DNA from: a virus
Virus record (IMG/VR): IMGVR_UViG_3300045588_000033
Location: 1 to 64,000 of that record
Length of the DNA stretch: 64,000 nt
Direction: 5' to 3' (one strand)
The position numbers and the translations under genes were made by a program. Position 1 is the first letter of the stretch; each line of letters begins with the position of its first letter. Below the pieces are notes generated by a model. That model did not search any database, was not told the origin of the DNA, and was given only the letters and a program-made list of their open reading frames with translations. This document shows positions 1 to 39,500 of the stretch, one piece after another.

Positions 1-330
1 AACCTCCTCACAACTTGGATTATTTACAAACCATTCTAAAAACTCATCATCAATAGATTGTACACCATCTAATGATTGGTCTGTTGTTAGGATTATTTTT
101 TTAAAGTCACTAATCCTATTATCTTTACCATGTACCGTTAATTTAGATACAACATTACAATAAGTATCATAGAACCAATCTCCTTCTTTAATTTCTTCAT
201 CATTAGTGATGTAGATGTGTTGACCATTAATAGTGTATTTACTAAGTACAGACTCACATAAAACTAACCCTGAATTTCCTAAATGTAACCTACTTGGTTT
301 ATCTGTTGGTAATAAGTGTAAATTTTTCAT
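1..330 (-). CDS. Hypothetical protein, truncated by window edge (MKNLHLLPTDKPSRL...YITNDEEIKEGDW...KKIILTTD)
   Basis: Open frame read by hand from ATG at 330 to the window edge; resembles a family common in Bacteroidota phages. Confidence 0.7.
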   Translation of the reverse strand, partial: MKNLHLLPTDKPSRLHLGNSGLVLCESVLSKYTINGQHIYITNDEEIKEGDWFYDTYCNVVSKLTVHGKDNRISDFKKIILTTDQSLDGVQSIDDEFLEWFVNNPSCEEV

Positions 331-331
331 A

Positions 332-739
332 TTACTTATGTTTTAATTTTGAAGTTAGTTCATCAACTTCAGATTGCTTTTTCTTTAACTCTGGTAATAA
401 TACCTCAAGTTTATGTTCTAAAACATCCTCTTCTGTTAAATGCCCAACATACTTAGTACCTCTTCTGCTATTTTTATCACTAAAAGCAATATAAAAAGAC
501 TCAGGTTTGTCTCCTATACCTGATGAAACTATATCAATACTATTACCATCAGGACGTATTTTACTTTGTCTATGCAGTATTTCAAATTCAACATATATCT
601 CCATGGGTTGCATATCTTTTTCTGTAAATCTATCAGAACGCATACCAACTACTGTTTTTTTTGAATAATTTCTTTTTTCAACATCATAGACATATACAGT
701 ACTTCCTAACTTTATATCTCTCCATTTTTCATTTGACAT
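332..739 (-). CDS. Hypothetical protein
   Basis: 135-aa ORF in a tightly packed minus-strand run. Confidence 0.7.
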   Translation of the reverse strand: MSNEKWRDIKLGSTVYVYDVEKRNYSKKTVVGMRSDRFTEKDMQPMEIYVEFEILHRQSKIRPDGNSIDIVSSGIGDKPESFYIAFSDKNSRRGTKYVGHLTEEDVLEHKLEVLLPELKKKQSEVDELTSKLKHK

Positions 740-744
740 ACTAC

Positions 745-882
745 TTAATTTTTATTTTTCCATTCTTTCCATGTATCAAAGTCCTTGAGCTTTTCAAGTT
801 TCCTTTTCCATTGAGCTTTTAAACTCATTCCTATAGCCCACATAACAAACATGCCTGATAGATATCCTATTACAAATTCCAT
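745..882 (-). CDS. Small membrane protein (45 aa, MEFVIGYLSGMFVMWAIG...)
   Basis: Hand-translated; fills the gap between neighbours; hydrophobic N-terminus. Confidence 0.55.
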   Translation of the reverse strand: MEFVIGYLSGMFVMWAIGMSLKAQWKRKLEKLKDFDTWKEWKNKN

Positions 883-883
883 A

Positions 884-1111
884 TTACTTAATGTTTTCTA
901 GTGGATAACTGTTTAGGATTGAATCTTTATCAACACTGCCATCGCTGAGATGTATCTCAAGTTCCTTTAATCTGGCATTTTGACTAGCTTCTTTCAATGC
1001 TGCTTCTACATGAAGTTTAGCAAATTCAATCATCATAGGAGTTAATAAATCTGTCATTCCTACTACATTATTTTCTTTTAGAAATTGTTCCGCTGTTGGT
1101 ATTTTTTCCAT
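884..1111 (-). CDS. Hypothetical phage protein (EFAKLHVEAALKEAS...DKDSILNSYPLENIK)
   Basis: 75-aa ORF in operon context. Confidence 0.75.
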   Translation of the reverse strand: MEKIPTAEQFLKENNVVGMTDLLTPMMIEFAKLHVEAALKEASQNARLKELEIHLSDGSVDKDSILNSYPLENIK

Positions 1112-1112
1112 A

Positions 1113-1673
1113 CTATTTACGTTTTAAAATTAAACAACCATCTGCATCATGCTTAAAAAGCACACCATCAAAAGCTTTGTTGTGAGCTGCTTTCATAGTA
1201 TCTGTAACAGAATAGACTTCACCATCTTCAACTTCAACTATTTCAACATCCCATTCAGTTTGTTGTAGTGATTGGATATGTTTATTTCTTAGTTCAGTCA
1301 TTGAGGAACAATCTTTGTCTTTATCATCTTCACACCAATCCCAAACTCTATCCATCGCAATCCTTACATCCTCCTCACTAAACTTCTTATCACCAAGAAT
1401 TTTTAGAGCGTGATGCCAACCAGCCTTGAAGCCTATTGTATGTGACTTTGAATCTAAACTATTATTAAATAGAATGTTTATTTTATTCATACTTGCCTTA
1501 GCCAACTCATACAAATCATAACCATTCTCAACTTCTTTGCAGTTTTTGAGGGATAGAGAATAGAAACCATGTTCTTCTGTAAGTTCTTTATTAGTAATTG
1601 CATAGATGTCATCTATATCTCCTGTCAATGATACTATATATCCTTCCAACATTTTAATTAATTTTGCTTCCAT
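1113..1673 (-). CDS. Hypothetical protein, MEAKLIK N-terminus
   Basis: 186-aa ORF; first 21 nt identical to upstream neighbour. Confidence 0.75.
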   Translation of the reverse strand: MEAKLIKMLEGYIVSLTGDIDDIYAITNKELTEEHGFYSLSLKNCKEVENGYDLYELAKASMNKINILFNNSLDSKSHTIGFKAGWHHALKILGDKKFSEEDVRIAMDRVWDWCEDDKDKDCSSMTELRNKHIQSLQQTEWDVEIVEVEDGEVYSVTDTMKAAHNKAFDGVLFKHDADGCLILKRK

Positions 1674-1677
1674 TTGA

Positions 1678-2148
1678 TCAATTCAATAGTTTATAAATGG
1701 TATCATAATCCATACCGTATTGATTACACTCATTTTCACCAACTGGTTCACATTTAACTAATCTTAGTTTATTATAATCATTAGTGAATGTTACTTTATA
1801 TCCATCATATCCATCACTAAATGCAATAAATTCCCATATATTATCATCTAGTTTTAATGTTTCTAAGTTTTCTGATTCGGAATCATAAAGAGATTTTGCT
1901 GTTGCATCATCAATATCATGAATATATCTAATAAATGATTCGAATTTCTTTTTCCATGATTTCTTAATCAATTCATAATTGGCAATATCAATCCCTAGGT
2001 GATGTAGCGCATCATTATCACGTTCATCATTTCTAGCATCAATTAGTTTTTTCAATATATCAATTACTGAATCACTATCAATTACAGCTATTTGTTCATC
2101 AAGTATTTGTAAAGCTTCTTCATGATCTTTAATTAATTTTGCTTCCAT
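1678..2148 (-). CDS. Hypothetical protein, MEAKLIK N-terminus
   Basis: 156-aa ORF. Confidence 0.7.
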   Translation of the reverse strand: MEAKLIKDHEEALQILDEQIAVIDSDSVIDILKKLIDARNDERDNDALHHLGIDIANYELIKKSWKKKFESFIRYIHDIDDATAKSLYDSESENLETLKLDDNIWEFIAFSDGYDGYKVTFTNDYNKLRLVKCEPVGENECNQYGMDYDTIYKLLN

Positions 2149-2151
2149 CTT

Positions 2152-2370
2152 TTAATTATTTAAATGATTTAATTGCTCATAGATTATTTCTCTAATCTTC
2201 TCATCATAATGATGTAATAATTCAGTTATATCATCTCCAGATACAGTGTGAATTAATTCTAAATGCATATTTTCTAACTCTTGTTCATCAGATTCATACG
2301 CTGCAGTAAAGTAATATCCAACATTTAGTTGAACGTTTTCTAACTCTATTGTAATTGTCTTGCTGTTCAT
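2152..2370 (-). CDS. Hypothetical acidic protein
   Basis: 72-aa ORF, tight packing. Confidence 0.65.
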   Translation of the reverse strand: MNSKTITIELENVQLNVGYYFTAAYESDEQELENMHLELIHTVSGDDITELLHHYDEKIREIIYEQLNHLNN

Positions 2371-2371
2371 T

Positions 2372-2569
2372 TTAAATAGTTTTAAATGATATTAATGCTA
2401 TCCATTTCTTTTCTTTAATCCATATTTGTTCAAATACAACTTTATGGTTATTTTTAGATGCATTAAGAGCATCAGCTTGATAAGAATCAACTTCCATTTC
2501 TAATGGATTGCCGTCTTCTAAATATTTAACAACCCATTTTTTACCTTTTTTAACTAATGTTCCTTCCAT
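2372..2569 (-). CDS. Hypothetical protein (likely start MEGTLVKK)
   Basis: ORF 2372..2602; internal ATG avoids overlap with the upstream gene. Confidence 0.6.
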   Translation of the reverse strand: MEGTLVKKGKKWVVKYLEDGNPLEMEVDSYQADALNASKNNHKVVFEQIWIKEKKWIALISFKTI

Positions 2570-2573
2570 CTTT

Positions 2574-2852
2574 TTATTTTTTAAATTTAGGACTACATCC
2601 AAATAATATTGTATTTTTAAATGATTGCTTAAAAATCTTGTGTTTGATTTTATAAAGCTTAGTAGTATTTTCTACTATTTCATCAAAGACAGACTCTTCT
2701 ATCTCATAGTCCATAAAAGGTATCTCTCTTTGTCCTCTTTCATTTACTGTAGAGTTTTTCAACAACTCATCAAATGATGCAGCGGGAGTTGCATTTGCAA
2801 ACAACTCCCTATAACAATGCATTATTGCTTTATCAATGTTCTTATTTGTCAT
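2574..2852 (-). CDS. Hypothetical protein (likely start MTNKNIDK)
   Basis: ORF 2574..2933 with the start shortened to reduce overlap. Confidence 0.65.
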   Translation of the reverse strand: MTNKNIDKAIMHCYRELFANATPAASFDELLKNSTVNERGQREIPFMDYEIEESVFDEIVENTTKLYKIKHKIFKQSFKNTILFGCSPKFKK

Positions 2853-3093
2853 TCTTTTTTCTTTTAGTTTCCTCAAGAGGATTAAAATACTTATCCCATT
2901 TAGAAAAATGTATTGATTTAATAGTTGCTGCATCTATCATATCCATGTTACCTTTTTTTTCAGCAAGTTTTTCTAATGCTAAATGAATTAAATCTGCTGT
3001 AACATAATCTATATGAATTCCTACCATGTTAAGTGCTACTAATAAATAGTGCTGCTTATCTTCATAATCTTTAATTTCTACTTTTCTTTCCAT
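2842..3093 (-). CDS. Hypothetical protein
   Basis: 83-aa ORF. Confidence 0.65.
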   Translation of the reverse strand: MERKVEIKDYEDKQHYLLVALNMVGIHIDYVTADLIHLALEKLAEKKGNMDMIDAATIKSIHFSKWDKYFNPLEETKRKKNDK

Positions 3094-3119
3094 AATTTAG
3101 ATTTTAGATTGTTAATAAT

Positions 3120-3262
3120 TGGTGGCTCTAGTGGGAATCGAACCCACCTTGTATACTGTAATATGTAATATGAATATGAAGGAGAGCTACTCACCCATAC
3201 TTCTCTATTTATTACCTCTACCCACTCACAGTTCAGGAGCTACCTTTACCTGTTATAGAGCC
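3120..3262 (-). ncRNA. tRNA-like RNA (143 nt) with a ~68-nt insert in place of the anticodon loop
   Basis: Acceptor stem GGCTCTA/TAGAGCC, discriminator A, encoded CCA, T arm GTGGG-TTCGATT-CCCAC, D-like stem CAGG/CCTG, anticodon-like stem ACTGT/ACAGT. Confidence 0.7.
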
Positions 3263-3471
3263 ATGTACGGGTCTTTCCCCGATTGTCACCATTGCCAATT
3301 TTGCGCATCAACTTGGACTTGCTTCCTAAAAGCTTTTTCTCCTATCTATTTAGAGCTGACCATTGGTTTTCACTCTCACTTCTTAATCAGTGATTTACTT
3401 CACTTAAAATAAATGCTGCAAATACTACAATTGCAATTATAAGATATTCCATTGTTATTTAATTTAATTAG

Positions 3472-3625
3472 TAGTCAGGACAGGAGCTGCCCCTGCACGT
3501 AACTTAGGTTTTCCGCTTTCACTTTTTTAGACCCTCCGTGAAATTGTTAGATGTGTCCTCACCAGTTATCCCTGTTACAGACCAAACTCTACCTCTTGCG
3601 TCTCTCATATTTCCGCCACCTGACT
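3472..3625 (-). ncRNA. Degenerate class II (Leu-like) tRNA frame (154 nt) with large central insert
   Basis: Acceptor stem AGTCAGG/CCTGACT, 5' TGGCGGAA...AGACGC D arm, T stem GCAGG/CCTGT with non-canonical loop GGCAGCT. Confidence 0.55.
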
Positions 3626-4169
3626 ATATTACTATTAGCTCTTTAGCATTCTACTCCCAGCTCCGAGGAATTGTATCTTACTTAGCCCATCTCACCGCTG
3701 TACGGGTACTAAAGTTTACTAATAGTTGAGGTTGAGAATTCCTCTGTGTTATAGAGAACTTATACTCTAATTTTTAGTACTCCTCATCTCATAACGGTTT
3801 GCTTACCGTATCGGGAATAACACATTTAATAAAACTAAGGCGTATTACACTATACTACTTTCTCTTACGAGCCTGTGACAGTTCTAGCTGCCCATTTCCT
3901 TAGTTTTAACAACATACCCTGTCAGCCCAAGTTGCTGAATATATTATATAAGGCTTAAATCCTATACACGACTTTCACCCATGAGCCTAGTCTAATATCC
4001 TTCCACAAACAACTCCACCTTGGTATGGATTCTAACCTTCTTTAGACTCTTGCTTACGTAGGGCCCTATAGTTTTCTTTTAATATTGGTTATTCATTTGC
4101 TTCCAGCAGGGTAATTTTATACTGTGCCAAAATTGTAAAATAATTATGCGTTTGGCGGATTATAAATTT

Positions 4170-4224
4170 TCATAACAAGGTATAAGCGCAATTGAAAAAA
4201 ACTGCGCCTATACGGATGTTAGGT
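4170..4224 (-). repeat. attC-like site 1
   Basis: TCATAAC 4170-4176, arms GTATAAGCGCA/TGCGCCTATAC (10/11), GTTAGGT 4218-4224. Confidence 0.75.
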
Positions 4225-4225
4225 G

Positions 4226-4537
4226 CTATTGTAAAGACAACCACTCCTCACCTTTAGCAGTTATTTCAAAATCTCCCCTACAACCACAGCTACAACCATC
4301 AACTAAACCACGTTTCATTAATTGCCTCATTTTTGCTAAAATCAATTTTTCAGAAGCAATATTTTTAGGCATTACATTTCTGACATCTCTATCATTTTCA
4401 AAATACCAGTTACACCAATGCCCTTTGTGTTTTAGCAAAAATTCCATAATAGGTTTGTCTGGTATCTCTTTACATTGAGAAACAACAGCACCTAACACGG
4501 GTTTGGCAAAAAAGCCGTTTTGTTCTTCGTTTGACAT
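4226..4537 (-). CDS. Cassette protein, wHTH-like with CxCGC motif; start codon lies inside the loop of site 2
   Basis: 103-aa ORF, LMKRGLVDGCSCGCRGDFEITAKG; stop abuts site 1. Confidence 0.75.
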   Translation of the reverse strand: MSNEEQNGFFAKPVLGAVVSQCKEIPDKPIMEFLLKHKGHWCNWYFENDRDVRNVMPKNIASEKLILAKMRQLMKRGLVDGCSCGCRGDFEITAKGEEWLSLQ

Positions 4538-4615
4538 ATTGTTCTAATTTTTAAGTTTTGTGCTTCGATTTAGCTTTTCGTTTCGGCTTCTTCGCCAAGC
4601 CCGAACCCGTTAGCG
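4490..4615 (-). repeat. attC-like site 2
   Basis: ACCTAAC 4490-4496, arms 4498-4517/4584-4603 (17/20), GTTAGCG 4609-4615. Confidence 0.8.
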
Positions 4616-4621
4616 GTCAGT

Positions 4622-4918
4622 TTAGTGAGAAGCATTGTAATAACCACTCCAAATTTTCTCTTTGCACTCAAATAAATTTGATAATTGTTTACCTAAATTA
4701 TATTCACGCATTGGGTTTCTGCAACTATCTATTTCTTTTTCTAAGTCTTTAATTCTTTGCTCGACCATTTGCTCAAACATTTCAGGAATATTATCTTGAA
4801 TTTCTTTTACTATTTCATTTTGAAATTTTGCCAAATCTTCTAATTCTTTACGTTTTGGAATACCTAACATAAATTTAGTAGTTAGCTTTAATAATTTATT
4901 TGTTACTTTTTTTGACAT
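4622..4918 (-). CDS. Cassette protein, helical hypothetical (likely start MSKKV)
   Basis: ORF 4622..4954 between sites 3 and 2. Confidence 0.7.
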   Translation of the reverse strand: MSKKVTNKLLKLTTKFMLGIPKRKELEDLAKFQNEIVKEIQDNIPEMFEQMVEQRIKDLEKEIDSCRNPMREYNLGKQLSNLFECKEKIWSGYYNASH

Positions 4919-4945
4919 AATATTTATTTGTTTAGAAAACCGAAC

Positions 4946-5080
4946 CGCTAACACTCGTTTTGTGCTATTACGGCAATTTCAGTTAATATTAAATTTTGTT
5001 GTTACGTTCACGTTTTTCGGTAGCCGAAAAACCTCTTTTCGCTTAGTGCCGTAACATCACAAAGCGAGATAACGTTATCA
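4946..5080 (-). repeat. attC-like site 3
   Basis: CGCTAAC 4946-4952, arms 4954-4975/5047-5068 (19/22), inner hairpin GTTTTTCGG/CCGAAAAAC, GTTATCA 5074-5080. Confidence 0.8.
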
Positions 5081-5362
5081 AACATTGATACGTTTTCTGT
5101 AACCGTTGCAAATATCAAGAATGAAATCTATTCTGTTTTCTTCTGTATCAAAACCAGTCATCATTTCTTCAAGAGTATCTTTCAGTATTCCCACTTGCTC
5201 ATCAATAAGTTTGTGCTTTTGTTTTTGCAGATATTCTTCAGCGTATTGACTACACATCAATTGTATTTTATACCTTCCCATTTCAGAGTTCCCAAACTTA
5301 TCAATAATCTCGTAAGCCATTTCTTGAATGGTTTTCTCTCTATCTATTTTTACTCTTTCCAT
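5078..5362 (-). CDS. Cassette protein, hypothetical
   Basis: 94-aa ORF; TGA stop overlaps the core of site 3. Confidence 0.7.
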   Translation of the reverse strand: MERVKIDREKTIQEMAYEIIDKFGNSEMGRYKIQLMCSQYAEEYLQKQKHKLIDEQVGILKDTLEEMMTGFDTEENRIDFILDICNGYRKRINV

Positions 5363-5404
5363 AATTCGAATTTTAGTTCATTTATAATCTTTTCCGCAAC
5401 GCTT

Positions 5405-5458
5405 TGCTAACAATAGATAAGCGCAACTTTGCAGTCGCTTATCTATATCACGTTATAA
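5405..5458 (-). repeat. attC-like site 4
   Basis: TGCTAAC 5405-5411, arms ATAGATAAGCG/CGCTTATCTAT (11/11), GTTATAA 5452-5458. Confidence 0.8.
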
Positions 5459-5695
5459 ATCAGTTTGCTTTTTACCAGTTCCTTTACACCAATCACAATC
5501 ACTTATCAATAGTTTGCCTGAACCTGAACAAGCAATGCAAACCGAACTTATAACAGTAGGTTGGTGCAATTTACTTAGTATCGCATCCGAAACAATATCG
5601 AAGTTATCTTCGTGTATCGCTTTTTCAGTTCTGCTACGGTCAATATATCCGCCATATTCTTTTAATAATTCAATAATTTCGTGCTTCGTTATCAT
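5453..5695 (-). CDS. Chimeric protein: N-terminus encoded in site 5 plus DnaJ-type zinc finger (CxxCxGxG x2) from the next cassette
   Basis: 80-aa ORF; CIACSGSG...CDWCKGTG; TAA stop is part of the TAAC core of site 4. Confidence 0.75.
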   Translation of the reverse strand: MITKHEIIELLKEYGGYIDRSRTEKAIHEDNFDIVSDAILSKLHQPTVISSVCIACSGSGKLLISDCDWCKGTGKKQTDL

Positions 5696-5745
5696 AATAT
5701 TTTATTTTTAATTCGTAAACTCCACCAACCTACATTACGTTATAA
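5548..5745 (-). repeat. attC-like site 5 (long protein-coding loop)
   Basis: TTATAAC 5548-5554, arms GTAGGTTGGTG/CACCAACCTAC (11/11), GTTATAA 5739-5745. Confidence 0.75.
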
Positions 5746-5749
5746 GCAA

Positions 5750-6049
5750 TTATGCTTCTTTTAGTGGTAGCCAAATTTCGGTATCTACAAAGCATTTTTC
5801 TTTACCTGATAAAGCATTGTACTTTTTAACATAGTCTTCTGCTACTTCTTTTGTGGTACAAACAACGTCTTCATTATTATTATCGTACCATCTTACAATT
5901 GCATAACTTCCAATAACAGCATCTTGGCTCAATGCGAGTTTCTTTTCCATCCAATCAGAATATGCAGGTATGTTGTCGCTAAATACCAAATCTGTTTCAC
6001 GAGAATATTCAATCCTCAATTTCATTCTTTGTTCACTTACTTTATTCAT
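5750..6049 (-). CDS. Chimeric hypothetical protein (likely start MNKVSEQ inside the loop of site 6)
   Basis: ORF 5750..6136; crosses site 6 at LSQDAVIGS. Confidence 0.7.
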   Translation of the reverse strand: MNKVSEQRMKLRIEYSRETDLVFSDNIPAYSDWMEKKLALSQDAVIGSYAIVRWYDNNNEDVVCTTKEVAEDYVKKYNALSGKEKCFVDTEIWLPLKEA

Positions 6050-6104
6050 TCTATTATATTTTTCGTTAATAATTCGCACTAAGCCAAGTTGCATTCCGTT
6101 ATAT
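5911..6104 (-). repeat. attC-like site 6 (long protein-coding loop)
   Basis: CAATAAC 5911-5917, arms 5919-5937/6074-6092 (16/19), GTTATAT 6098-6104. Confidence 0.75.
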
Positions 6105-6209
6105 GCAACGCTACTTGACTGCTTCCAATTCATCAATTCGTTTTATTTAACTGGACAAAAATACAGCCACAAATCAATGCAGCCGTATATTTTGTTTACA
6201 GTAACCTAT

Positions 6210-6335
6210 CTAAATAGTAAGTAATATATATACTGCATAACCTACAGCAAATAATCCTACTAATAATTGCAATAAAGGTAAACAACCTGCTGCTGCACTT
6301 TTGTTGTCTTCTTTGTTTTCTTCACTATTTTTCAT
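6210..6335 (-). CDS. Small membrane peptide (41 aa)
   Basis: Hand-translated MKNSEENKEDNKSAAAGCLPLLQLLVGLFAVGYAVYILLTI. Confidence 0.5.
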   Translation of the reverse strand: MKNSEENKEDNKSAAAGCLPLLQLLVGLFAVGYAVYILLTI

Positions 6336-6354
6336 CTTGTTTATATTTAATTAA

Positions 6355-6618
6355 TTAATAAAAAGGATTTGATATTCCTAATTGTCTACAATAATTGTCT
6401 CTTTTACCTATTAAATCGTAGTCTTGGCTCTCTGCTAAGCTACTATAATAGCACATTTCCTCGTATTCTTCAATGTCTTCTTCAAGACATAGCACAGGAA
6501 AGTTATCAGTTATTAATTGAGCTCTATGCTCATTATCTTTGGGCTTATACTCAAGCTCTATTGCTCGTAAGTATACTCCCAATTCAGTAATAATTACTCT
6601 TGGTTTTGTTTCTTGCAT
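6355..6618 (-). CDS. Hypothetical protein
   Basis: 87-aa ORF. Confidence 0.65.
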   Translation of the reverse strand: MQETKPRVIITELGVYLRAIELEYKPKDNEHRAQLITDNFPVLCLEEDIEEYEEMCYYSSLAESQDYDLIGKRDNYCRQLGISNPFY

Positions 6619-6664
6619 GATGGAGTTATTTAGGTGATACCGCTAAATTTTTTTTAAAGAAATA

Positions 6665-6695
6665 AAAGGGAGAATAGATTTACTATTCCCCCTTT
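6665..6695 (-). terminator. Intrinsic terminator
   Basis: Minus-strand hairpin AAAGGGGGAATAG/CTATTCTCCCTTT followed by a T-rich tract, just after the stop at 6704. Confidence 0.65.
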
Positions 6696-6703
6696 GCTTC
6701 AGA

Positions 6704-7219
6704 TTAAATACCTAATGCGTCAGCAATTGCTGAATTACCTGTAACAGCTTGACGAGTTGTCTCAGCGATTAAAGTATGCTTAGCCTCACCCAATACTACA
6801 GAAGTATTTACGTAGATATACAAACCATCTTTAGACATGATGAAATCACCGTCTTTACCTGCACGCTTTGCTCTTCTTTCAAAGTTAGCTACATCATAAT
6901 CTGATCCAGCAGTAGTCTCAGTAATTTGAAGATTCAAAGAACGATCATCTCCTGCAATTTTAGGATCAACCATATCAATTTCTAATTCTTCTCCTTCTGC
7001 TAATGCAGAAACATCTAGACCAAATTGTAATTGAACATCTGCAGGTTGTGCAGATAACCAAGCATAACGAGGCTTAGACTGATTAAATCTTTCGTCAGAA
7101 GCATTCAAGATGCCCAACAAACCTGTTGGAGTCTTTCCTGTTTCTACAATTTGAGAGAAAGTTAATTGTACTTTTCCACCTTTGATTCCTTTTGCTGATA
7201 CTAATGTTACTTTTTTCAT
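6704..7219 (-). CDS. Early protein of unknown function
   Basis: 171-aa ORF with its own terminator. Confidence 0.8.
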   Translation of the reverse strand: MKKVTLVSAKGIKGGKVQLTFSQIVETGKTPTGLLGILNASDERFNQSKPRYAWLSAQPADVQLQFGLDVSALAEGEELEIDMVDPKIAGDDRSLNLQITETTAGSDYDVANFERRAKRAGKDGDFIMSKDGLYIYVNTSVVLGEAKHTLIAETTRQAVTGNSAIADALGI

Positions 7220-7414
7220 AATAATTTTGTTTTTTAAAGATAAATAATTTATAGATTTTGCTCTAAAACACAGACTTATAAAGTCTTTTCACATACACGA
7301 GCATGTACATAAAATGTAATTTGGTTGTATTTTTTCGACGATGCTAACAACCATTACTAATAAATGAAAGAACTGTTCATCGCAGTAAATAAATAGATTT
7401 CATTCTATTTAATT

Positions 7415-7446
7415 AAAAAAGATAGTGGGACACGCTTCTCCCACTA
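7415..7446 (-). terminator. Intrinsic terminator
   Basis: TAGTGGGA/TCCCACTA stem followed by TCTTTTTT on the minus strand. Confidence 0.55.
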
Positions 7447-7719
7447 AGAACTTACCTAACCTAACTAAACTACTATAACCATTAAACTAGCACCCTTTGA
7501 CTTGTAAACAAGAATAGGGTCATATAGTAAGAGGTATTCTATACATGATATATAGACTGTGACACATTACTATTTGCTGAGAGCTCATTTGCATTGTATA
7601 GGACTATTTATGTCTCTATATGTTTTTAGTCTTGCTTTCTCAAGGCAACAATACATTACGTATTTCTACGTATATCCAATTTTTAAACAGGCTTATCAAT
7701 GTTTAGTCCTGTGGCATCC

Positions 7720-7974
7720 TTAGTTTAATGCATGCTTGCGGTTAATAGCTGTATTAGCTATCACCGCTATTTTAATACCAGCTTCAAAAGTCCAAAGCTT
7801 GGTAAATTTATATTTAGTACGATCTGATTCCTTGTGTAAATACTTAGAATACAAATCATCCTCAATGTTTTTTATTAGCCCATCATCATCAGGAGAGATA
7901 ATGTTGTATACAAGAACATCATCTTCATCGAAAATAAGTTCTAATCTATATATGTAATCATTTTCAAAGTCCAT
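7720..7974 (-). CDS. Hypothetical protein
   Basis: 84-aa ORF. Confidence 0.6.
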   Translation of the reverse strand: MDFENDYIYRLELIFDEDDVLVYNIISPDDDGLIKNIEDDLYSKYLHKESDRTKYKFTKLWTFEAGIKIAVIANTAINRKHALN

Positions 7975-8142
7975 GATACAGTTTTTAAAGTTCTATTACT
8001 AAATTAATCTTTTATTTAGTACTAAATACTAAACAGAGATAATTAAAAGAATCTTCATCATTAAGCTATAAGATGGAGATTCTACTGACTTATAAAGTCT
8101 ATTAAGCAATACGATATAAGACTATTCGTTGCTCAATTTTCA

Positions 8143-8295
8143 TTAAGATATAGCTAATGTAGCTGTAATCCCAATTGCTGATGCAATTACTATTAGATCA
8201 CCTAAATGATTACCACCTAACATTAAGATTGTTCCTAATACCATAGTTACAAGCAATATTGCTGTGAATATGTGCGCTAAATTCTTTCTTTTCAT
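8143..8295 (-). CDS. Small two-TM membrane protein (50 aa)
   Basis: Hand-translated MKRKNLAHIFTAILLVTMVLGTILMLGG... Confidence 0.5.
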   Translation of the reverse strand: MKRKNLAHIFTAILLVTMVLGTILMLGGNHLGDLIVIASAIGITATLAIS

Positions 8296-8405
8296 AATTT
8301 CTCTATTAATATTATTAATACTATTATTACTATCATTGTGTATAAGTAAAATATACCCACACTTCCATTTCTCTTCATAAGTTTAATTTTTAAGTTAATT
8401 AAAAA

Positions 8406-8581
8406 TCCCTCTGCACTCAGTTGTAATATGTTGTTCCTACTATTTTTCCATGACTATGTTTCTTAATAAACTATTAGGATCTAGTCTATTAACTACTTTC
8501 ATAGAGGGCATTTCAACCTATACTTTGGCCAAAGCATCAACATATTACAACTGCTCACCCTTGGGAAGTGAGATTGGTGCA
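8406..8581 (-). ncRNA. Candidate structured RNA (three-way junction plus pseudoknot)
   Basis: Perfect 16-bp stem 8418-8433/8538-8553, stems TGCAC/GTGCA and CTCAC/GTGAG, loop-tail TCCC/GGGA complementarity. Confidence 0.5.
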
Positions 8582-8602
8582 TTACAAATATGAAGCTTAC
8601 TA

Positions 8603-8812
8603 TTATTCAGCTTCATATTTTTTAAAGTCATTTATTTCTGAGAGTAATCTACATACTCGGACATGACTAGGTCCAAATGTAATTTTATTGTTTGGCTGCA
8701 TTTGATTGAGGAGTTTTTCAAAAGATCCAATCTTTTTAAATCCTAAATAATTTGCAACAGCACAAAATCTTACAGTGAACCTTTGATTCGTAATATTTTT
8801 CTGTGAATACAT
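8603..8812 (-). CDS. Hypothetical protein
   Basis: 69-aa ORF. Confidence 0.5.
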   Translation of the reverse strand: MYSQKNITNQRFTVRFCAVANYLGFKKIGSFEKLLNQMQPNNKITFGPSHVRVCRLLSEINDFKKYEAE

Positions 8813-9057
8813 TTCTTTAATTTAAATGTTAATAAATAATTAAGCCATACCCTTATTAAAGGATATGACTTGTTAACTCTTTAAGAGTTAGGGTTACGAG
8901 TCCAAGACTGGTTAGTAACCACACCGTTAACTACACACATAATTGAAAATCAATTAGTTAAGTATGAAAACAAGCACACTCACGTAGTGCTCAACGACAG
9001 TATATTCACAGACGAGTGAGTATATTCAATGTGTCTGACTCCGCAAAGCGGTGACCC

Positions 9058-9336
9058 TTAGAGGATCACTGCCTTGAAGTACTTAGAGTCAGGCTTAGCC
9101 ACGAACTCTACCTTCTTTGCGTAATCAACATCAAGCGGCAATGCTGTCTGCACTTGCTCCAGTGTGTACTGAGGCAGCATGAAGATAGAAGCAAGAGCAG
9201 TCCCACAAGACAAGCCGTTAAGCTCTTTGTCCTTACGAAAGACAACGAGCACGCGTGTCTCATACGCTCCTGTCATTGCGTCGTTCTCCCAAACTGGGCA
9301 TTGTGTTTCTTTAATTTGGTGGATTGAAATTTTCAT
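9058..9336 (-). CDS. Hypothetical protein, first gene of the leftward arm
   Basis: 92-aa ORF, visibly more GC-rich than surroundings. Confidence 0.65.
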   Translation of the reverse strand: MKISIHQIKETQCPVWENDAMTGAYETRVLVVFRKDKELNGLSCGTALASIFMLPQYTLEQVQTALPLDVDYAKKVEFVAKPDSKYFKAVIL

Positions 9337-9590
9337 TTTGTAATTTTTAGTGGGGGCGACATTGCCCGTCCAAGATTTAGTGGGGGTGGTTGACTGTGGT
9401 ACTAACCACTAGCTTGAAATCTAAGAAATCTAAAATAAAAAAATATAAAAAAAAATTATTTATAATCTAAAGGTAAGTGGCTAAACAGCGCTACATTTAT
9501 ACATTCGTACAAGTGCACCTACTGTGTAGGTTTACCTATACATTAGTCTAAAATCATAAAATACTATATAACAGTTAGTTACAATTTTCT

Positions 9591-9680
9591 ACTACCATAA
9601 TTGGTAGGCTCTTACTACCATCAGAGTGATAGTAATAACCTAACAAGCACTGATAGTTGGACTACCACTTACATGATAGT
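9591..9680. promoter_or_regulatory. Cluster of ACTACCA-N4-6-TG(A/G)TAG(T) palindromes (operator or replication-origin iterons)
   Basis: ACTACCA at 9591, 9614, 9661; TGGTAG 9602; TGATAGT at 9627, 9651, 9674; located at the transcription divergence point. Confidence 0.6.
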
Positions 9681-9801
9681 ACGTCTCATAACTATAATAA
9701 TTCAAAATTCCTAATAATATTTACATTATTATTAGCCTACTATTCCTTCATCATATTGAATTATTACATAACTTTACGAACAAGTTAAAAACAAGCACAC
9801 T

Positions 9802-10605
9802 ATGAGCAAAAATAAAAGTAAAACTAAAAGCGTTAGAAAGAGAATGTTCTATGATATAGAGGTTTCTTATTTCATAGTTAGTGCTTGGAGATTAGGATAT
9901 AATCTTTCTATCCAACCACATCAGATTATTAAGTACCCTTCCGTAATTTGCCTATCATGGAAGTGGGAAGGTGAGGAAGAAGTTCATAATCTTAGATGGG
10001 ATGATGATCAGTGTGATAAAACTCTAATACAGGACTTTGTCAAGGAGCTTAATAAAGCCAATCAAATAGTAGCACATAACGGAGATAGATTTGATTTAAA
10101 ATGGTTACGCACAAGAGCAGTCCTACACGGGCTACACATGAACCCTAGATATGAAACTATAGATACTCTTAAAATAGCTAAGTCACAATTTAGTTTTGCT
10201 TCTAATAAACTAGATGAACTAGGAAAATACTTAGGAGTAGGACAGAAGATACCTACTGATTACTCTTTATGGGACAAAATATGCCAAGAGAAATCTGAAG
10301 ATGCACTTAACGATATGGTTAAATACTGCGATGAAGATGTTAGACTTTTAGAGCGAGTGTATCAAAAATTAAGACCTTACGCTAAGGCTCAGTTTAACTA
10401 CGGCAAACTTTACGGCAATGATAACTTTGCTTGCCCAGAATGTGGAAGTCTACACCCAAGGGTTACTAAATGCTACACTACTGCAATGGGAGTAAGAAGA
10501 TATTACTTGCAATGTAAAGAGAGCAAATGCCAAACTAATTACCCTGTAAGTAACCGTACGTACCTCAAAATGATAGAGCACCAAATACTAAATCCAATAA
10601 TTTAA
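9802..10605 (+). CDS. DnaQ/RNase H-like 3'-5' exonuclease (DEDDy) with C-terminal zinc ribbon
   Basis: YDIE, HNGDRFD, YCDEDV motifs; CPECG...CKESKC. Confidence 0.85.
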   Translation: MSKNKSKTKSVRKRMFYDIEVSYFIVSAWRLGYNLSIQPHQIIKYPSVICLSWKWEGEEEVHNLRWDDDQCDKTLIQDFVKELNKANQIVAHNGDRFDLKWLRTRAVLHGLHMNPRYETIDTLKIAKSQFSFASNKLDELGKYLGVGQKIPTDYSLWDKICQEKSEDALNDMVKYCDEDVRLLERVYQKLRPYAKAQFNYGKLYGNDNFACPECGSLHPRVTKCYTTAMGVRRYYLQCKESKCQTNYPVSNRTYLKMIEHQILNPII

Positions 10606-28313: not shown

Positions 28314-29680
28314 TGAATTCTAAAACAAGAATATTTAAGTTTGTACCTACAACTGTATCAGGGCCTTTTAAAGTAAGGGTAGTTGCTGACGGTGGTAGTG
28401 TTGAATCAGAATCTTGTTTAAATGCTCAGGCTAAAGTATTATCTGACTCAGGTATATTAAGAGAGTGTAGTTTATTTATTACTCCTAATGGATATAAGAC
28501 AAGTAAACTATATGCTCAAACTCCATCCAACGGCAACGGAGACTTAACATGGACACGAAATAGTGAAACAACAAGGGTAAATAGTGCGAGGTTAATTGAG
28601 AATGTACTAGCAAACGTACCACGCTTAGACTATTCTTTGGGCGGTTGTCCAAGTATTTTATTAGAACCTCAGAGGACTAATCTGGCACTAAACTCAGGCG
28701 ATGCACTAAGTGGTGGTGGGACTGGAGGTGTGGTCGTTGCTGATCAGATTACGGCACCTGACGGCAGCTTGGCTGATTTCTTTAAAGAGGACACAAGTAA
28801 TGGTGAGCATTATGCGGGTGACAGAACTTTTTCCGTTACTGCTGGAACCACATATACATGGTCGTTTTATGCCAAGCTTGGGTTGACAGGGGAGGTCCGA
28901 CGCGTGTGCGTGAGAACTGGTCTTCAAGGCCCAGCAAATGTTATTTTCGATCTTGAAACAGGTGACAGTACTGTAATTGGAGGTGCTATTTCTTTCGGCA
29001 GTAGTTCTGCTGGAAATGGATGGTGGCGTTGCTGGATTGTGTTCATAGCAACTGGCACTGGAGTAGCTGTGTTTCGTCAGCAATTAGCAAAAGGCGTTAG
29101 CACTGGTTACATAGGTAACGGCACCTCAGGTCTATTTCTCTGGGGCGCTCAACTGGAAGCAGGAGCCTACCCAACATCCTACATCCCAACAGTTGCAAGT
29201 ACATTTACAAGGGTTGCGGATACATTTAGCCGAAACAACATATTTACAAATGGGCTAATTTCTGCAAGTGGTGGAACATGGTTTATTGAATTGAATAATA
29301 ATTTATTATTGACAAGAGATGCAATAGGAAATGGTATTTGGATTGGAGATAACAATACATCAAGCACAACTGGAAATTCATTAAACATTAGACACAACGG
29401 ATTGACTGCAAGATTAATTATAAATAAGTGTATTAATGGTACGTTAACACCGTTATACACCACTTTGACAAACACTATTAAAATAGCAATTGATTGGAAT
29501 GGTACAACTGCAGATGTCTTTGTGAATGGTGTTAAGGTTGTAACAAATACTGCCTTTGCAGTTACTAATATGGAATTCTTAAATGGTAATGGTATAGACG
29601 TTACAAAATACATCAAACAAATGTGGCTTGAAAATGTTCCAATGTCCGACACTAAATTAATAGCAGCAACAACATTATGA
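28313..29680 (+). CDS. Spike/fibre protein with carbohydrate-binding-like and concanavalin-like domains
   Basis: PRLDY...LLEPQRTNL, GNGWWRC, WGAQLEAGAYPTSYIPT...TRVAD motifs. Confidence 0.8.
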   Translation: MNSKTRIFKFVPTTVSGPFKVRVVADGGSVESESCLNAQAKVLSDSGILRECSLFITPNGYKTSKLYAQTPSNGNGDLTWTRNSETTRVNSARLIENVLANVPRLDYSLGGCPSILLEPQRTNLALNSGDALSGGGTGGVVVADQITAPDGSLADFFKEDTSNGEHYAGDRTFSVTAGTTYTWSFYAKLGLTGEVRRVCVRTGLQGPANVIFDLETGDSTVIGGAISFGSSSAGNGWWRCWIVFIATGTGVAVFRQQLAKGVSTGYIGNGTSGLFLWGAQLEAGAYPTSYIPTVASTFTRVADTFSRNNIFTNGLISASGGTWFIELNNNLLLTRDAIGNGIWIGDNNTSSTTGNSLNIRHNGLTARLIINKCINGTLTPLYTTLTNTIKIAIDWNGTTADVFVNGVKVVTNTAFAVTNMEFLNGNGIDVTKYIKQMWLENVPMSDTKLIAATTL

Positions 29681-36567: not shown

Positions 36568-39500
36568 TGGAAAGACACATAAATACATACCAAGGATTAA
36601 ATAAAGATACTGCTTATGATAGTATACAATCTGAATTATATATTGATGCCAAAGATATTAGGATAACTACTACTAATGGAGAATCTATGGGAGCCTTTAC
36701 TAACATTAAAGGTAACCAAGAAGCTTTTACTATTCCTAATGCCTACGGAGCAGGTCTACCTTTTGGACCATGGGCAGCTGTAGGAATCCCTCAAATAATA
36801 GGATACACTACTATAAGAAATAGGATAGTATTATTTGTAGCAGATGATTCAGAGGCAAACGGTTGGATTTATGTAGTTGAATATAATACAGCTACCAGAG
36901 AAATACTTCCTGGATTTCCAGTATTAAAATATTATAGTCCAATCTTAAACTTTAGTAAGAAATGGCCAATAGAAGCATTAGGTCTATATGAATCTAACTG
37001 CATTCAAAAAGTATATTGGACAGATTACAATAATTACTTTAGAAGTATTAATTTAGAAGATGCTAACTTACTTACATTCCCAGCTTCTTCTGTAGATATT
37101 TTTCCAGACATTACTTATACTCAACCGCTTTTAAAAGTAATAGCAGGTGGGGGAATAGGTGTGTATGCGGGTGAGTACCAAGTAGCTTATAGATTAATTA
37201 CATCTGATGGTAAAGAAACTTTAGTTTCTCCTCCAAGTAATTTAGTACATGTTGTTTCCGATTCGGAAACTACTCAATCTGCTTTTTACAACGGAGATTT
37301 AAATGCTACAATAGATACAGGTAAAAGTTTAAGTTTCCAAGTAGATACAAGTAACTACGGAGATTTTAATGAAATAGAATTTATAGTAATATATCATTCT
37401 TCTCAAGTATCATCGCCTGTAGTTAATAGTATAGAAAAGATAAGTATAAATAATCAAACTACTATTAGTTTTACTTATACAGGAAATGAAGGAGCTATAG
37501 TACCTATTGAATTATTAACATTTACAGCTAAGAATAATCCATTTAAAACTCCTAAAACAATTACTCCTAAAGATAGTTCTTTAGTAATTGCTAATATTAA
37601 AAGTTCTACTGTATCTATAGCAAGTTTATTAGGGCCTAATGAAACTTTTGATTCTAGAACTAATAGATTCTTAAATGACGGAGTAACTTTGCCACATCCA
37701 CTAACAGGTAATCCAGAACAAATAGATGAAGCTAAAACTAAGAATGCTTTTAATGTATCTGTGGATCCTTCTTATAGTGCTAAACCATCTATAGGATTTA
37801 ACTCAGATGCGCATTGGGATACTGAATGGCAAACTGCAAAGCAATTTAAATATAAAATTGATGGAGCTACTTTAGGAGGAGATGGTCCTAATATTTCTTA
37901 TGAATTTCATTTAGAAGCTTTTACTTTAGACTCCGCTGTCCCAGGATTCTCAGAAGGAATTCCTACTGTTCCAAATACTCCAGATTTTGTATTAACTCAT
38001 AATCTTAATGACGGTTATGGTACTTACGAGAATACTACTTACCCTAATTTTGCCTCTCCGTTTTTATCGGGGCTAATGCGGGGTTATAAACGGGGGGAAA
38101 CTTATCGTTTTGGTATAGTACTGTATACTACTAAAGGAGAAGCTACTTTTGTAGAATACATTGGCGACATCAAGTTTCCAGATATTTCAGAAAGAAACAG
38201 CACTGAAACTATTCCAGGGACTGGGATAAACTATTGGCCATTATCCTTATCTCCTGCGGATACGGCACAACCACGTACTGTCGGATACTCATTAGGAATA
38301 AAATTTAATATAGATTTTTCTAGTTGTCCTTTATTAGAATCTCAAATAGAAAGTTATCAAATAGTAAGAGTACAAAGACAAGATGCCGATAAGCGCAGAT
38401 ATTCTCAAGGTTTAGTAAAAGGATTTTATTTTGCTCCTATTTTAGAAGGTGATGCAGAAGATTTTAATTTACAAATAAATGGCAGCAGCAATGCCTTACA
38501 TTTATATCCTTATTATCCAGTAGATAGTGGGACTAATTTATCTAATGCTACTTTTGCCACTCTAGAAGATCAAGAATACGATCCTTCTCCTTATACTCCT
38601 GTATATGCAGATTATAAAGTTAAAGGACAATACTTAGGGTTTTATTCCCCAGATTTATCATTTAAATTTGGAGATAGTAATACCGCAATGACAGCTTTAA
38701 GCAACAACCCTTGTATGCTAGTAACAGGAGCTTACTACGACTACATGAACTCTTATATTCCAATAGGTGGAAGAGATTTTTCTGCACAAGGTTTGGGACA
38801 ACATTGTTTTGATCAAAGATTAACTTCCAGAAGTACTTATCCAACTAGTTTTAATAGTATAGAAAATATTAAACAATTTGCAGATTTAACTTATATGCAA
38901 ATGCCTGATACTGCTAGCTATGAAAACAGTGTTACTTCTGATTACGGAGGATCTTATATGCGCAATTATTACGCAATAGATGATTACAATAAAAAACCTG
39001 ATGTAAATTTAAATAAACCACAGGATGGTGCTTCTAATACAGATGTGCCTACTATAAATAAAGCTGGAACAAGTATTATTGGAAGAATTAAAAGGATTAC
39101 TATAGACCCTTTAATAGGTACATCCGTAACTCCTTCTGCTTTCGATTATTTTAAAGCCCCTTATACAAATTATATACACGTCAAGACTATAACTTCAGGT
39201 GCGCCTAATATCGGTATATCAGATTCTACTTTTCCTATTATAGATTATGTACTTCCTAAAAGTGAGGTGTACGGAGGATATAATCAAAGTGCGTTAGAAA
39301 CTAATATCTTCATAGGAGCTTCACCTGTAATAGCTAAAACAAATCTTAATCCTAAAGTATTTGGTGGAGATATTTTTGTAAACATGTTTACGCTACAGAC
39401 ACAGACTGTTGATTTTAATACAGACTTTTATGCTGATAATAAATATCACCAAGATAATACTGAGACACAAGCTTACCCAGTAGAAACACAATTAAATTTA

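Follow-up and report, generated by a model that had tools for sequence, protein, structure and literature searches.

A probable orphan array of integron-like gene cassettes in a crAss-like phage, and its site family in Bacteroidota and their phages

Positions 4173-6101 of a crAss-like phage sequence very probably form an orphan five-cassette array whose site-specific recombination system, integron-like but non-canonical, is one found in Bacteroidota and their phages. The DNA analysed (the window) is a 64-kb stretch of the 91.5-kb record IMGVR_UViG_3300045588_000033, about 69% complete, which derives from an environmental phage. Its assignment as crAss-like in a preliminary description was borne out by an MCP 29-31% identical to Crassvirales MCPs over 98% of its length and by the presence of terminase and portal genes. 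The same description had reported no integrase in the window, and this absence extends to the rest of the record: a PF00589 search detected no tyrosine recombinase in the 64-kb window or in the remainder of the 91.5 kb, and tblastn with six array-associated recombinases as queries revealed neither a recombinase gene nor a remnant in the whole record. As the phage has no recombinase, its array is an orphan, CALIN-like one.

Results

Sites and cassettes in the window

The sites were scanned with the pattern TAAC, one nucleotide and an arm (at least 9/10 complementary), followed after a loop by the partner arm, five nucleotides and GTTA. Inspection of the sequence and the script scan agreed on five sites with these 1/5 offsets, at 4493-4612, 4949-5077, 5408-5455, 5551-5742 and 5914-6101 (sites 2 to 6), whereas site 1 (4173-4221) has offsets of 3/4. 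When any offset was allowed, 12 matches were obtained in the window against 1.5 expected from Markov shuffles. No further match of 1/5 geometry was found elsewhere in the window or in the remaining 91.5-kb record, in which 4173-6101 is the sole such cluster. A repeat search recovered the same arms together with a 16-nt inverted repeat (4217-4232/4482-4497) bracketing ORF A. The stops of the five minus-strand ORFs (4226, 4622, 5078, 5453 and 5750) lie 0-9 nt from a core, and the bases flanking the cores are complementary across the cassettes (10/10, 9/9, 8/9, 8/9 and one weak pair). These results are in agreement with the preliminary description, which had reported six TAAC...GTTA sites, one geometry for sites 2 to 6, small ORFs ending at or near the cores, and flanks matching across cassettes with a weak fifth pair. 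It had also proposed folding both strands; this was carried out for sites 1 to 4, and the minus strand folded slightly better in all four. An Rfam scan of positions 1-10000 at permissive thresholds matched no family on the sites, and ARAGORN gave no match in 2800-4300.

Site 1, on the minus strand, is the 49-nt terminal hairpin of the array (-9.3 kcal/mol, z -2.9) and is followed by backbone sequence. Its geometry is atypical, with a 5-bp TAACA/TGTTA box, a 3x2 internal loop and a 12-14 bp stem, and it is the only site flagged as terminator-like as a whole. The array in another viral contig, L281, likewise ends in a 45-nt terminal site, similar to site 1, with offsets of 4/3.

All five cassettes lie on the minus strand. 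Cassette A (4219-4609, 391 nt) combines site 2 (120 nt) with ORF A (4226-4537, 103 aa), whose ATG and first 15 codons are inside the loop and 3' arm of the site. Its flanks, GTTAGGTGCT and AGCACCTAAC, match at 10/10 positions and at 15/16 over the longer repeat. ORF A matches phrog_5135, and its body has homologues of 76-84% amino acid identity located outside any array; these have a native ATG, which the site leader replaces in the cassette form. Cassette B (4610-5074, 465 nt) is made of site 3 (129 nt), which is non-coding (-22.5 kcal/mol, z -3.1) and has an inner hairpin resembling a terminator, and of ORF B (4622-4918, 98 aa); its flanks GTTAGCGGT and ACCGCTAAC match at 9/9 positions. Cassette C (5075-5452, 378 nt) carries site 4 (48 nt, perfect 11-bp arms, fold z -4.1) and ORF C (5078-5362, 94 aa), with flanks matching at 8/9. 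In cassette D (5453-5739, 287 nt), site 5 (192 nt) has a coding loop and is followed by the rest of ORF D (5453-5695, 80 aa), which shows a DnaJ-type CxxCxGxG zinc finger (PF00684, E 4e-4, below the cut-off) and whose stop codon is provided by the TAA of the next core. Cassette E (5740-6098, 359 nt) comprises site 6 (188 nt), also with a coding loop, and ORF E, for which the ATG at 6049 is the likely start (5750-6049, 99 aa); its flank pair is the weakest of the five. Beyond it on the same strand, 6102-6160 reads ...TAGCGTTGCATA|TAAC, the usual 3' end of a cassette (family consensus tagcattgcataTAACG), with no site upstream. This segment is probably a truncated cassette tail forming the ragged outer edge of the array, and an intrinsic terminator of the upstream gene follows at 6161-6188.

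A site family common in Bacteroidota and their phages

The arms of the six sites had been described as unrelated in sequence but conserved in geometry. This view was not upheld, since the arms belong to conserved families and close copies of sites 2 and 6 occur in other viral contigs. Five of these contigs (L027, L090, L113, L089 and L095) have sites with 95-97% identity to the whole 120 nt of site 2, which is also 76% identical to Muminvirus sites, and L037 has a site with 74% identity to site 3. Near-identical leader-encoding sites precede unrelated bodies, and the L281 site with 86% identity to site 6 is joined there to a different body. The occurrence of the same site with different ORF bodies is in keeping with conserved site families, of which the Vibrio VCRs are an example; exchange at the opposite core, or a homologous exchange inside the sites, would account for it as well. 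When the fetched loci were searched at the DNA level for a cassette body recurring in another context, only three identical triplicates were returned.

The site family is common in Bacteroidota and their phages. Viral contigs and Bacteroidota genomes each gave at least 120 exact matches to a 19-mer of site 2; all comparison loci were fetched through this 19-mer, so that the sample is biased to that site family. In the viral loci the strict scan found 194 sites, most of which form arrays on one strand. This count, like the other family counts from the strict scan, is a lower bound because the sites of Polaribacter phage P12002L, with a 3' spacing of 2-3 nt, escaped the strict geometry and were found by eye.

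On the minus ('bottom') strand, the site reads 5'-TAACG, a 4-nt bulge, a 20-bp stem, a variable loop, the stem partner and TGTTA-3'. Stem positions 14-19, which are not selected by the scan, are 82-93% Watson-Crick with 2-4 pair types, against 6-50% in shifted controls. Compensatory changes were present in 13/13 stem pairs, and the covariation score of 0.624 (against 0.154) was reached by 0/500 shuffles. On the TAACG strand, G.T wobbles outnumber A.C mismatches (319 versus 31), and a closing G.T is found in 195/197 sites. The flank signature also holds in the family: the triplets formed by the 3 nt outside each core pair across the cassette in 73/115 cases, compared with 7.5 by shuffling (maximum 17), and within a site in only 19/237.

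In bacteria, the folding strand is antisense to the genes in 54/84 cassettes. Phage cassettes face the opposite way, with the ORF on the folding strand, and the site is consequently 5' of the gene; in 74 of the 111 long phage sites, an ATG in the loop reads into the gene.

Recombinases beside related arrays

Chromosomal arrays, of 12 to at least 21 sites, begin beside a tyrosine recombinase of 369-379 aa which, in bacteria, is co-directional with the cassettes. Some phage arrays also adjoin an Xer-like tyrosine recombinase. In locus G044, the first cassette begins at a lone GTTA about 100 nt past the recombinase stop, and four phage records have a lone TAAC as the end of the last cassette, directly before a recombinase homologue of 265-294 aa. 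Examples of the enzyme are a compact phage form at L254:3704-4573 and a bacterial form at L247:13275-14414, which has a lone-core junction beside it at L247:14415-14531. These lone cores have no hairpin, whereas the window has only the atypical site 1. Recombinase homologues were found within 8 kb in 14/120 bacterial loci. Among near-complete array-bearing phage records, only 1/15 encodes its own tyrosine recombinase, so that supply in trans looks like the normal state.

The best matches of the array-associated recombinase are XerA-type proteins. It scores 204-208 bits against the integron-integrase model TIGR02249 (cut-off 265) and aligns to VchIntIA in two blocks, skipping IntI4 residues 182-241; in place of the IntI-specific insertion of about 60 residues in VchIntIA it has about 17. 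The preliminary description had suggested that a host or distal tyrosine recombinase serves the array and had called for a search of the rest of the genome and of candidate hosts for an IntI-like enzyme. A dedicated tyrosine recombinase does exist in Bacteroidota genomes and in some phages, at the head of arrays of this kind; it is Xer-like, without the IntI-specific insertion, and the 91.5-kb record has none.

Position of the crossover

The Flavobacterium phage filifjonk9-1 carries three extra genes compared with mumin6-1, and both breakpoints lie within AACGTTA. In this Muminvirus pair the crossover is thus confined to 7 nt, with the arms differing on either side. Together with the lone GTTA or TAAC beside recombinase genes, this indel places the predicted crossover at plus-strand G|TTA and not at plus-strand TAA|C. 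Cassettes had previously been delimited at 4176-4495, 4496-4951, 4952-5410, 5411-5553 and 5554-5916; as the crossover appears to lie at the other core, these bounds have been replaced by those given above. With a crossover at G|TTA, a cassette would consist of a site and the complete ORF downstream of it on the minus strand, and under the corrected boundaries no cassette holds a protein domain only, so that domain-only cassettes and a combinatorial assembly of proteins need not be invoked.

In a protein-level comparison of the bodies the 5' site was co-inherited (in the three closest pairs, 5' sites have an identity of 0.91-0.97 and 3' sites one of 0.56-0.70; 13 versus 3 overall), in a sample confounded by the retrieval of all loci via the site-2 19-mer. 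For this reason the register was based on the Muminvirus indel and the lone cores.

Comparison of relatives for changes exactly at the cores, as had been proposed, gave a divided answer. The Muminvirus indel is core-exact, and relatives of the phage differ in cassette content at the same locus, but its closest relatives, L256 and L259, lack the whole block 4165-6340, and the nearest cores are 5-8 nt and about 240 nt away from its outer breakpoints. The preliminary description had named indel breakpoints unrelated to the cores among the observations that would speak against mobile cassettes, and in the phage's own lineage this is partly what is seen. The array therefore did not enter this lineage by a clean exchange from core to core, and it seems to have arrived as a block.

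Discussion

Proposed mechanism

In the proposed mechanism, each cassette would be made of one folded-DNA site followed by one small ORF. An Xer-like tyrosine recombinase would recognise the bottom strand in its folded form, with the crossover at TAA|C (G|TTA in the complementary strand), and in the family cassettes would be excised and inserted as circles. After insertion of a circle, the 3-10 nt that a cassette brings with it outside the cores would be complementary to one another from end to end of the cassette. The phage site, 5' of its gene, would often provide a start codon and a short leader peptide, as predicted here for ORFs A, D and E. Because the phage record encodes no recombinase, further movement in this phage would need an enzyme from the host or from a co-infecting phage. 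The recombination chemistry, the circular intermediate and present-day activity are what we infer from these sequence patterns.

Relation to known systems

The family of the array shares many properties with classical integrons and CALINs: same-orientation arrays, one ORF per site, structure conserved over sequence, and imperfect hairpins that are closed by AAC/GTT cores and have a variable loop (48-240 nt here). A better-folding strand, complementary own bases outside the cores, a predicted crossover at G|TT, a tyrosine recombinase beside a simple, possibly attI-like core heading related arrays, and near-identical sites on unrelated ORFs are also common to both. The closest known arrays are the sedentary chromosomal integrons, the Vibrio cholerae repeats measuring about 123-126 nt. 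The differences lie in the recombinase of the related arrays, without the IntI-specific insertion, below the integron-integrase cut-off and, in bacteria, co-directional with the cassettes; in a one-sided 4-nt bulge in place of the two-sided unpaired spacer of canonical attC; in fixed G.T and C.A positions in place of extrahelical bases; and in phage ORFs that share the folding strand and often begin within the site. An integron in the strict sense has an IntI with its specific additional domain next to the array, and none is present in the window or the 91.5-kb record, while G|TT-bounded cassettes with complementary outer bases are found in the window, in the family and at the Muminvirus breakpoints. 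With six same-strand sites within 1.9 kb and no recombinase in the record, the array corresponds to a CALIN whose sites are of a non-canonical family. Of the original interpretation as integron cassettes recombining at AAC/GTT cores, the identity of the array and the flank signature were retained and the register was corrected. The pdif modules of Acinetobacter plasmids, which are XerC/XerD-dependent, are likewise gene modules bounded by sites for an Xer-type recombinase encoded elsewhere, but their sites are 28-bp double-stranded dif-like sequences in alternating orientation and not long same-orientation folded hairpins.

IntegronFinder surveys reported almost no integrons in Bacteroidetes (PMC9024848), and a study of 10,705 genomes with canonical attC models yielded only 17 phage CALINs (Front Microbiol 2023, PMC9892861). 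One of these, in Polaribacter phage P12002L, is similarly an attC-like array that lacks an integrase and is carried by a phage infecting a Bacteroidota host, with small genes or methyltransferases. Its P12002L_attC1, called attC by HattCI, is, according to the published primer sequence, a 49-nt member of the present site family; with IntI1, it was the only one of six sites without verified recombinants, and this is the sole published test of a family member (PMC9892861). The site family, its geometry, its own recombinase and the reversed gene orientation are not described in that study. In T4-type phages, PeSL (promoter-early stem-loop) cassettes resemble the present ones in that small genes of unknown function in variable regions are bracketed by a conserved stem-loop and an expression motif (PMC2839356, PMC4122927), with indels between relatives at those motifs. 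They differ in having no AAC/GTT core, cross-cassette complementarity or associated tyrosine recombinase, and their shuffling is ascribed to homologous recombination between repeated motifs.

Alternative explanations

The most serious alternative, which we consider possible but rather unlikely, concerns the present activity of the array and not its identity. The sites would be truly integron-like but captured once by illegitimate or homologous recombination and now immobile, the hairpins having no role left but in gene expression, as start-codon modules, processing sites or terminators. The lack of a recombinase in the record, the off-core outer breakpoints, the truncated tail at 6102-6160, the terminator-like site 1 and the one decayed flank pair are all compatible with such a fossil. 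On the other hand, four of the five flank pairs are still complementary at 8/9 to 10/10 positions, and the copies of site 2 in other phages are 95-97% identical to it, which points to strong constraint or to a recent exchange. The presence of other cassettes at the same locus in relatives also argues against immobility, and a phage without its own enzyme is, as noted, the usual case in this family.

It is improbable that the sites are RNA-level elements of phage early transcripts, serving in processing, termination or start-codon presentation, with shuffling by homologous or microhomology recombination as proposed for PeSL cassettes (PMC2839356, PMC4122927). Because phage sites fold on the coding strand, the G.U pairs would form in mRNA; the loop ATGs, the terminator-like site 1 and inner hairpin of site 3, and the PeSL precedent are in line with this view. 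In bacteria, however, most sites fold antisense to the genes, which makes the conserved strand bias a property of DNA, and the pairing of variable triplets across a cassette has no role in a local RNA hairpin. Furthermore, the Muminvirus crossover falls within 7 nt between differing arms, and arrays are consistently linked to a tyrosine recombinase and a neighbouring lone core. The specific candidate of an RNA regulatory hairpin or intrinsic terminator was rejected on the bacterial antisense folding, the covariation of distal flanks across the cassette and the lack of an Rfam match.

That the sites are MITEs is hardly credible: the sites are short, bear terminal inverted repeats and are common to hosts and phages, and a census reports many MITEs in Flavobacterium and Bacteroidota phages (PMC11602168), but here the flanks are inverted and pair across the gene rather than the element, the arrays have one element per gene in the same orientation, structure is kept while sequence varies, indels carry whole gene-plus-site units, and the reading was rejected as neither a direct target-site duplication nor a single insertion was found, none of the latter (with target duplication) being seen between near-identical genomes. 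A chance origin of the array was also rejected.

Significance

Integrons are the textbook gene-capture device of bacteria, and surveys find them nearly absent from Bacteroidota and rare in phages. If the orphan array and its relatives work as proposed, Bacteroidota, a large phylum of ecological importance, and their viruses, including crAss-like phages, would swap small accessory genes through a parallel system which standard integron finders miss. Many cassette genes in the relatives are DNA methyltransferases, so that anti-defence functions are likely for cassette genes. A recombinase without the domain thought necessary for recognition of folded attC sites bears on the evolution of integrases from Xer proteins, and cassette A, as both a free phage gene and a cassette, offers a rare handle on the unsolved origin of cassettes.

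The array of the window is one more orphan member of this family. A broader reading, to which we give about an even chance, combines several points: Bacteroidota and their phages may share a distinct, essentially overlooked integron-like system with an Xer-like recombinase devoid of the IntI insertion; phages may run it 'inside out', the site being a portable 5' expression module with start codon and leader peptide; and ordinary phage genes may be converted to cassettes. If true, this joint reading would give a view of how cassettes arise.

Hairpin sites in the window

The phage codes for terminase, portal and head proteins, and its major capsid protein shares 29-31% identity, over 98% of the length, with the counterparts in Crassvirales and in Flavobacterium and Cellulophaga crAss-like phages; it is thus crAss-like, as assigned in the preliminary description. 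The hairpin sites claimed there were borne out by reading positions 3800-6500 and by a script scan of the window, as sites 1 (4173-4221), 2 (4493-4612), 3 (4949-5077), 4 (5408-5455), 5 (5551-5742) and 6 (5914-6101). Sites 2-6 have the common form TAAC, 1 nt, arm ... arm', 5 nt, GTTA, with identical 1/5 offsets and arm starts complementary at 9 or more of 10 positions; the offsets of site 1 are 3/4. An offset-free scan of the window gave 12 hits versus 1.5 in Markov shuffles, and scanning did not find the 1/5 geometry outside the cluster, either in the window or in the other 27.5 kb of the record. Along the coding (minus) strand of the array region, the layout of a site is 5'-TAACG, 4 nt, stem ... 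stem, TGTTA-3', with a G.T pair closing it. Folding of sites 1-4 gave a slightly more stable minus strand each time, and the TAACG/TGTTA box closes there. The core is reached 0-9 nt after the end of each of the five minus-strand ORFs (A-E), and the bases flanking the cores pair across the ORFs (10/10, 9/9, 8/9, 8/9 and one weak pair), as had also been described.

Spread and structure of the site family

In a distant DNA search only site 2 matched, with 76% identity to an intergenic sequence that separates DNA methyltransferase genes in Muminvirus phages of Flavobacterium. Its 19-mer TAACACGGGTTTGGCAAAA had at least 120 exact matches in IMG/VR contigs and at least 120 further ones in Bacteroidota genomes, including Flavobacterium, Chitinophaga, Sphingobacteriaceae, Cytophagales, Saprospiraceae and Algoriphagus. 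A strict scan of the viral loci found 194 sites, mostly in arrays of 2-6 on one strand, with length classes of about 49, 57-64, 72-80, 87-91, 115-120, 125-130 and 188-240 nt. The longest class (188-240 nt) has a common inner motif, CGAATTATTAACGA, with a second TAACG (window 5914-6101; loci L036:1118-1306, L115:1968-2178 and L070:3516-3754), and its loops encode about 45 residues; these could be nested or composite sites.

When 197 non-redundant sites were anchored on their cores, they showed a 20-bp stem with a closing G.T pair in 195 sites and fixed non-canonical positions (G.T at 10 and 13, C.A at 4). At stem positions 14-19, outside the scan selection, Watson-Crick pairing, with 2-4 pair types, amounts to 82-93%, versus 6-50% after one-column shifts. 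When 21 diverse 126-nt sites were aligned with MAFFT, changes on both sides were present in 13 of 13 testable stem pairs, and the covariation score was 0.624 versus 0.154 in shuffles (0/500 reached 0.624) and at most 0.105 for slid partners, the first ten stem pairs having been a selection criterion. Because G.T wobbles exceed A.C mismatches by 319 to 31 at positions 10-19 of the TAACG strand, this strand is the one selected for folding.

Cassette signature and crossover

The three variable bases beside each core were used as a barcode and compared between adjacent sites of the viral loci. In 73 of 115 cases the barcodes on either side of a cassette were complementary (shuffles 7.5, maximum 17 in 1000), and those on the two sides of a single site matched in only 19 of 237, as would be expected if complete hairpins were split by crossover at the core. 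The Flavobacterium phage filifjonk9-1 has three additional genes compared with mumin6-1, gp007-gp009, each with its own site. Identity between the two phages runs to ...GAGAACGTTA on one side and resumes at AACGTTAGTGGC; since it ends at the cores while the adjoining arms differ, the exchange is limited to 7 nt at the GTTA cores of the top strand.

In the window, the crossover falls between G and TTA of the top strand (TAA and C of the minus strand), and the cassettes are therefore 4219-4609 (A), 4610-5074 (B), 5075-5452 (C), 5453-5739 (D) and 5740-6098 (E), each a site and then a complete ORF. The cassette coordinates of the preliminary description were off by one site and separated the ORFs from their starts. 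ORFs A and D start inside the site loop (ATG at 4537 and 5695), as ORF E probably does (ATG at 6049); the starts of ORFs B and C lie 30-45 nt past the site. ORF D (5453-5695) ends with a DnaJ-type CxxCxGxG-x-CxxCxGxG zinc finger (PF00684, E 4e-4, below cut-off), and its residues 1-47 are encoded in the site 5 loop.

Gene orientation and site-encoded leaders

In bacterial cassettes the longest frame lies on the TAACA (top) strand in 54/84, which is the classical integron polarity, whereas viral cassettes have it on the TAACG (folding) strand in 97/116 and on the opposite strand in 4. A loop ATG is open through the core into the gene in 74 of 111 phage sites of 100-135 nt versus 10 of 108 bacterial sites on the same strand. 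The window leader MSNEEQNGFFAKPVL (4493-4537) recurs nearly unchanged before unrelated ORF bodies in other contigs and phages (for example at L095:9757-9876, L098:1131-1250 and L111:11397-11516); in the leader peptide, the 3' arm of the hairpin translates as F-A-K-P-V-L.

Homologues of the ORF A body (4226-4474), 76-84% identical to it, occur in three phage contigs (L282:2496-2736, L283:2499-2737 and L284:2263-2493). No site was found within 2.5 kb of the homologue in L282 or L283, and only weak, atypical scan hits near that of L284. The native ATG of the homologues aligns with ...TCTCAATGT... of the window, there fused in frame to the site leader. In these contigs the gene (phrog_5135, C-terminal GCxCGCRGDFEIT motif) is an ordinary phage gene that has its own ATG, and in the window the site-encoded leader substitutes for the native start. 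The comparison of cassette and free gene may be a snapshot of cassette origin.

Recombinase and attI-like core

Any tyrosine recombinase was present in 6 of 40 array-bearing viral records and in 1 of the 15 that are at least 90% complete. Chromosomal arrays of Bacteroidota are long (at least 21 sites over 32 kb in genome G042, 12 over 16 kb in G041), and those of G041 and G044 are headed by a tyrosine recombinase of 369-379 aa on the cassette strand, 48% identical between the two genomes. With NCBIfam, their nearest model was XerA/'integron integrase' (213-223 bits, cut-off 220), and they scored 204-208 bits against the integron-integrase model, below its cut-off of 265. Among solved structures, archaeal XerA proteins are the best relatives, and the array recombinase is devoid of the IntI-specific insertion, because its alignment to VchIntIA skips IntI4 residues 182-241. 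In public sources the family is named XerD, 'site-specific integrase' or 'tyrosine recombinase/integron integrase'. Four phage records have an array ending with a compact homologue of 265-294 aa (35-38% identical), and 14 of 120 bacterial loci have a homologue no more than 8 kb from the sampled site.

A lone core without hairpin adjoins the recombinase gene in G044 and in the phage records. In G044 it reads ...AAGTAAG/TTAGCGGTC, with ...ACCGC-TAAC as first cassette end; in the phage records it is ...TTGCACA-TAACG, with the recombinase ATG about 45 nt further. Its place and polarity would be those of an attI site. On the G042 chromosome (L243:12884-19296 and L218), about ten sites spaced by about 530 nt are separated by near-identical repeated units, in which convincing ORFs were not found; the units resemble cassettes that were tandemly amplified or lack an ORF.

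The locus in the phage lineage

The nearest relative, L256, has flanking proteins 89-99% identical to those of the window phage. The whole block 4165-6340 is absent from L256 and from L259, which have at this position an unrelated ORF and only a terminator hairpin, respectively. The left outer breakpoint precedes site 1 by 5-8 nt and the right one lies about 240 nt beyond site 6; a putative truncated cassette tail, ...TAGCGTTGCATA/TAAC, sits at the right edge of the array. In L269, which is more distantly related, the locus holds two well-formed cassettes that are different. The locus is thus a hotspot, and the array probably came as a fragment of a longer one. Also within the block, outside the site array, a 41-aa hydrophobic ORF F (6210-6335) is followed by a terminator-like hairpin (minus strand, 6161-6188).

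The stretch of about 1 kb that immediately follows the array on the minus strand (3100-4165) is conserved in parts among relatives, 3384-3630 being 99% identical in L256. Convincing ORFs are absent from this region; the only Rfam match, at 3131-3147 to the 3' end of a tmRNA, is weak (E 0.005), and ARAGORN found neither tRNA nor tmRNA there.

Relation to described integrons

In IntegronFinder surveys, integrons are essentially absent in Bacteroidetes (PMC9024848). A 2023 study of 10,705 phage genomes reported 17 CALINs, including one in Polaribacter phage P12002L (PMC9892861). The P12002L_attC1 primer sequence of that study is a 49-nt member of the window site family, and this was the sole site of six without verified IntI1 recombinants (PMC9892861). 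Both methyltransferase arrays of P12002L (L280) finish in the same element of about 70 nt, TAACAACGGATAAAACAAG... (29150-29260 and 37180-37320). This element is the published attC2, which recombined with IntI1 (PMC9892861), and it is unlike the internal sites of its arrays; it may be a dedicated terminal site, as may site 1 of the window. Our literature search found no description of the site family, the associated recombinase or the reversed phage orientation. The integron-like reading of the preliminary description finds support in substance, and recombination itself is what we infer; the window array belongs, as an orphan, to an integron-like system that is non-canonical and poorly described.
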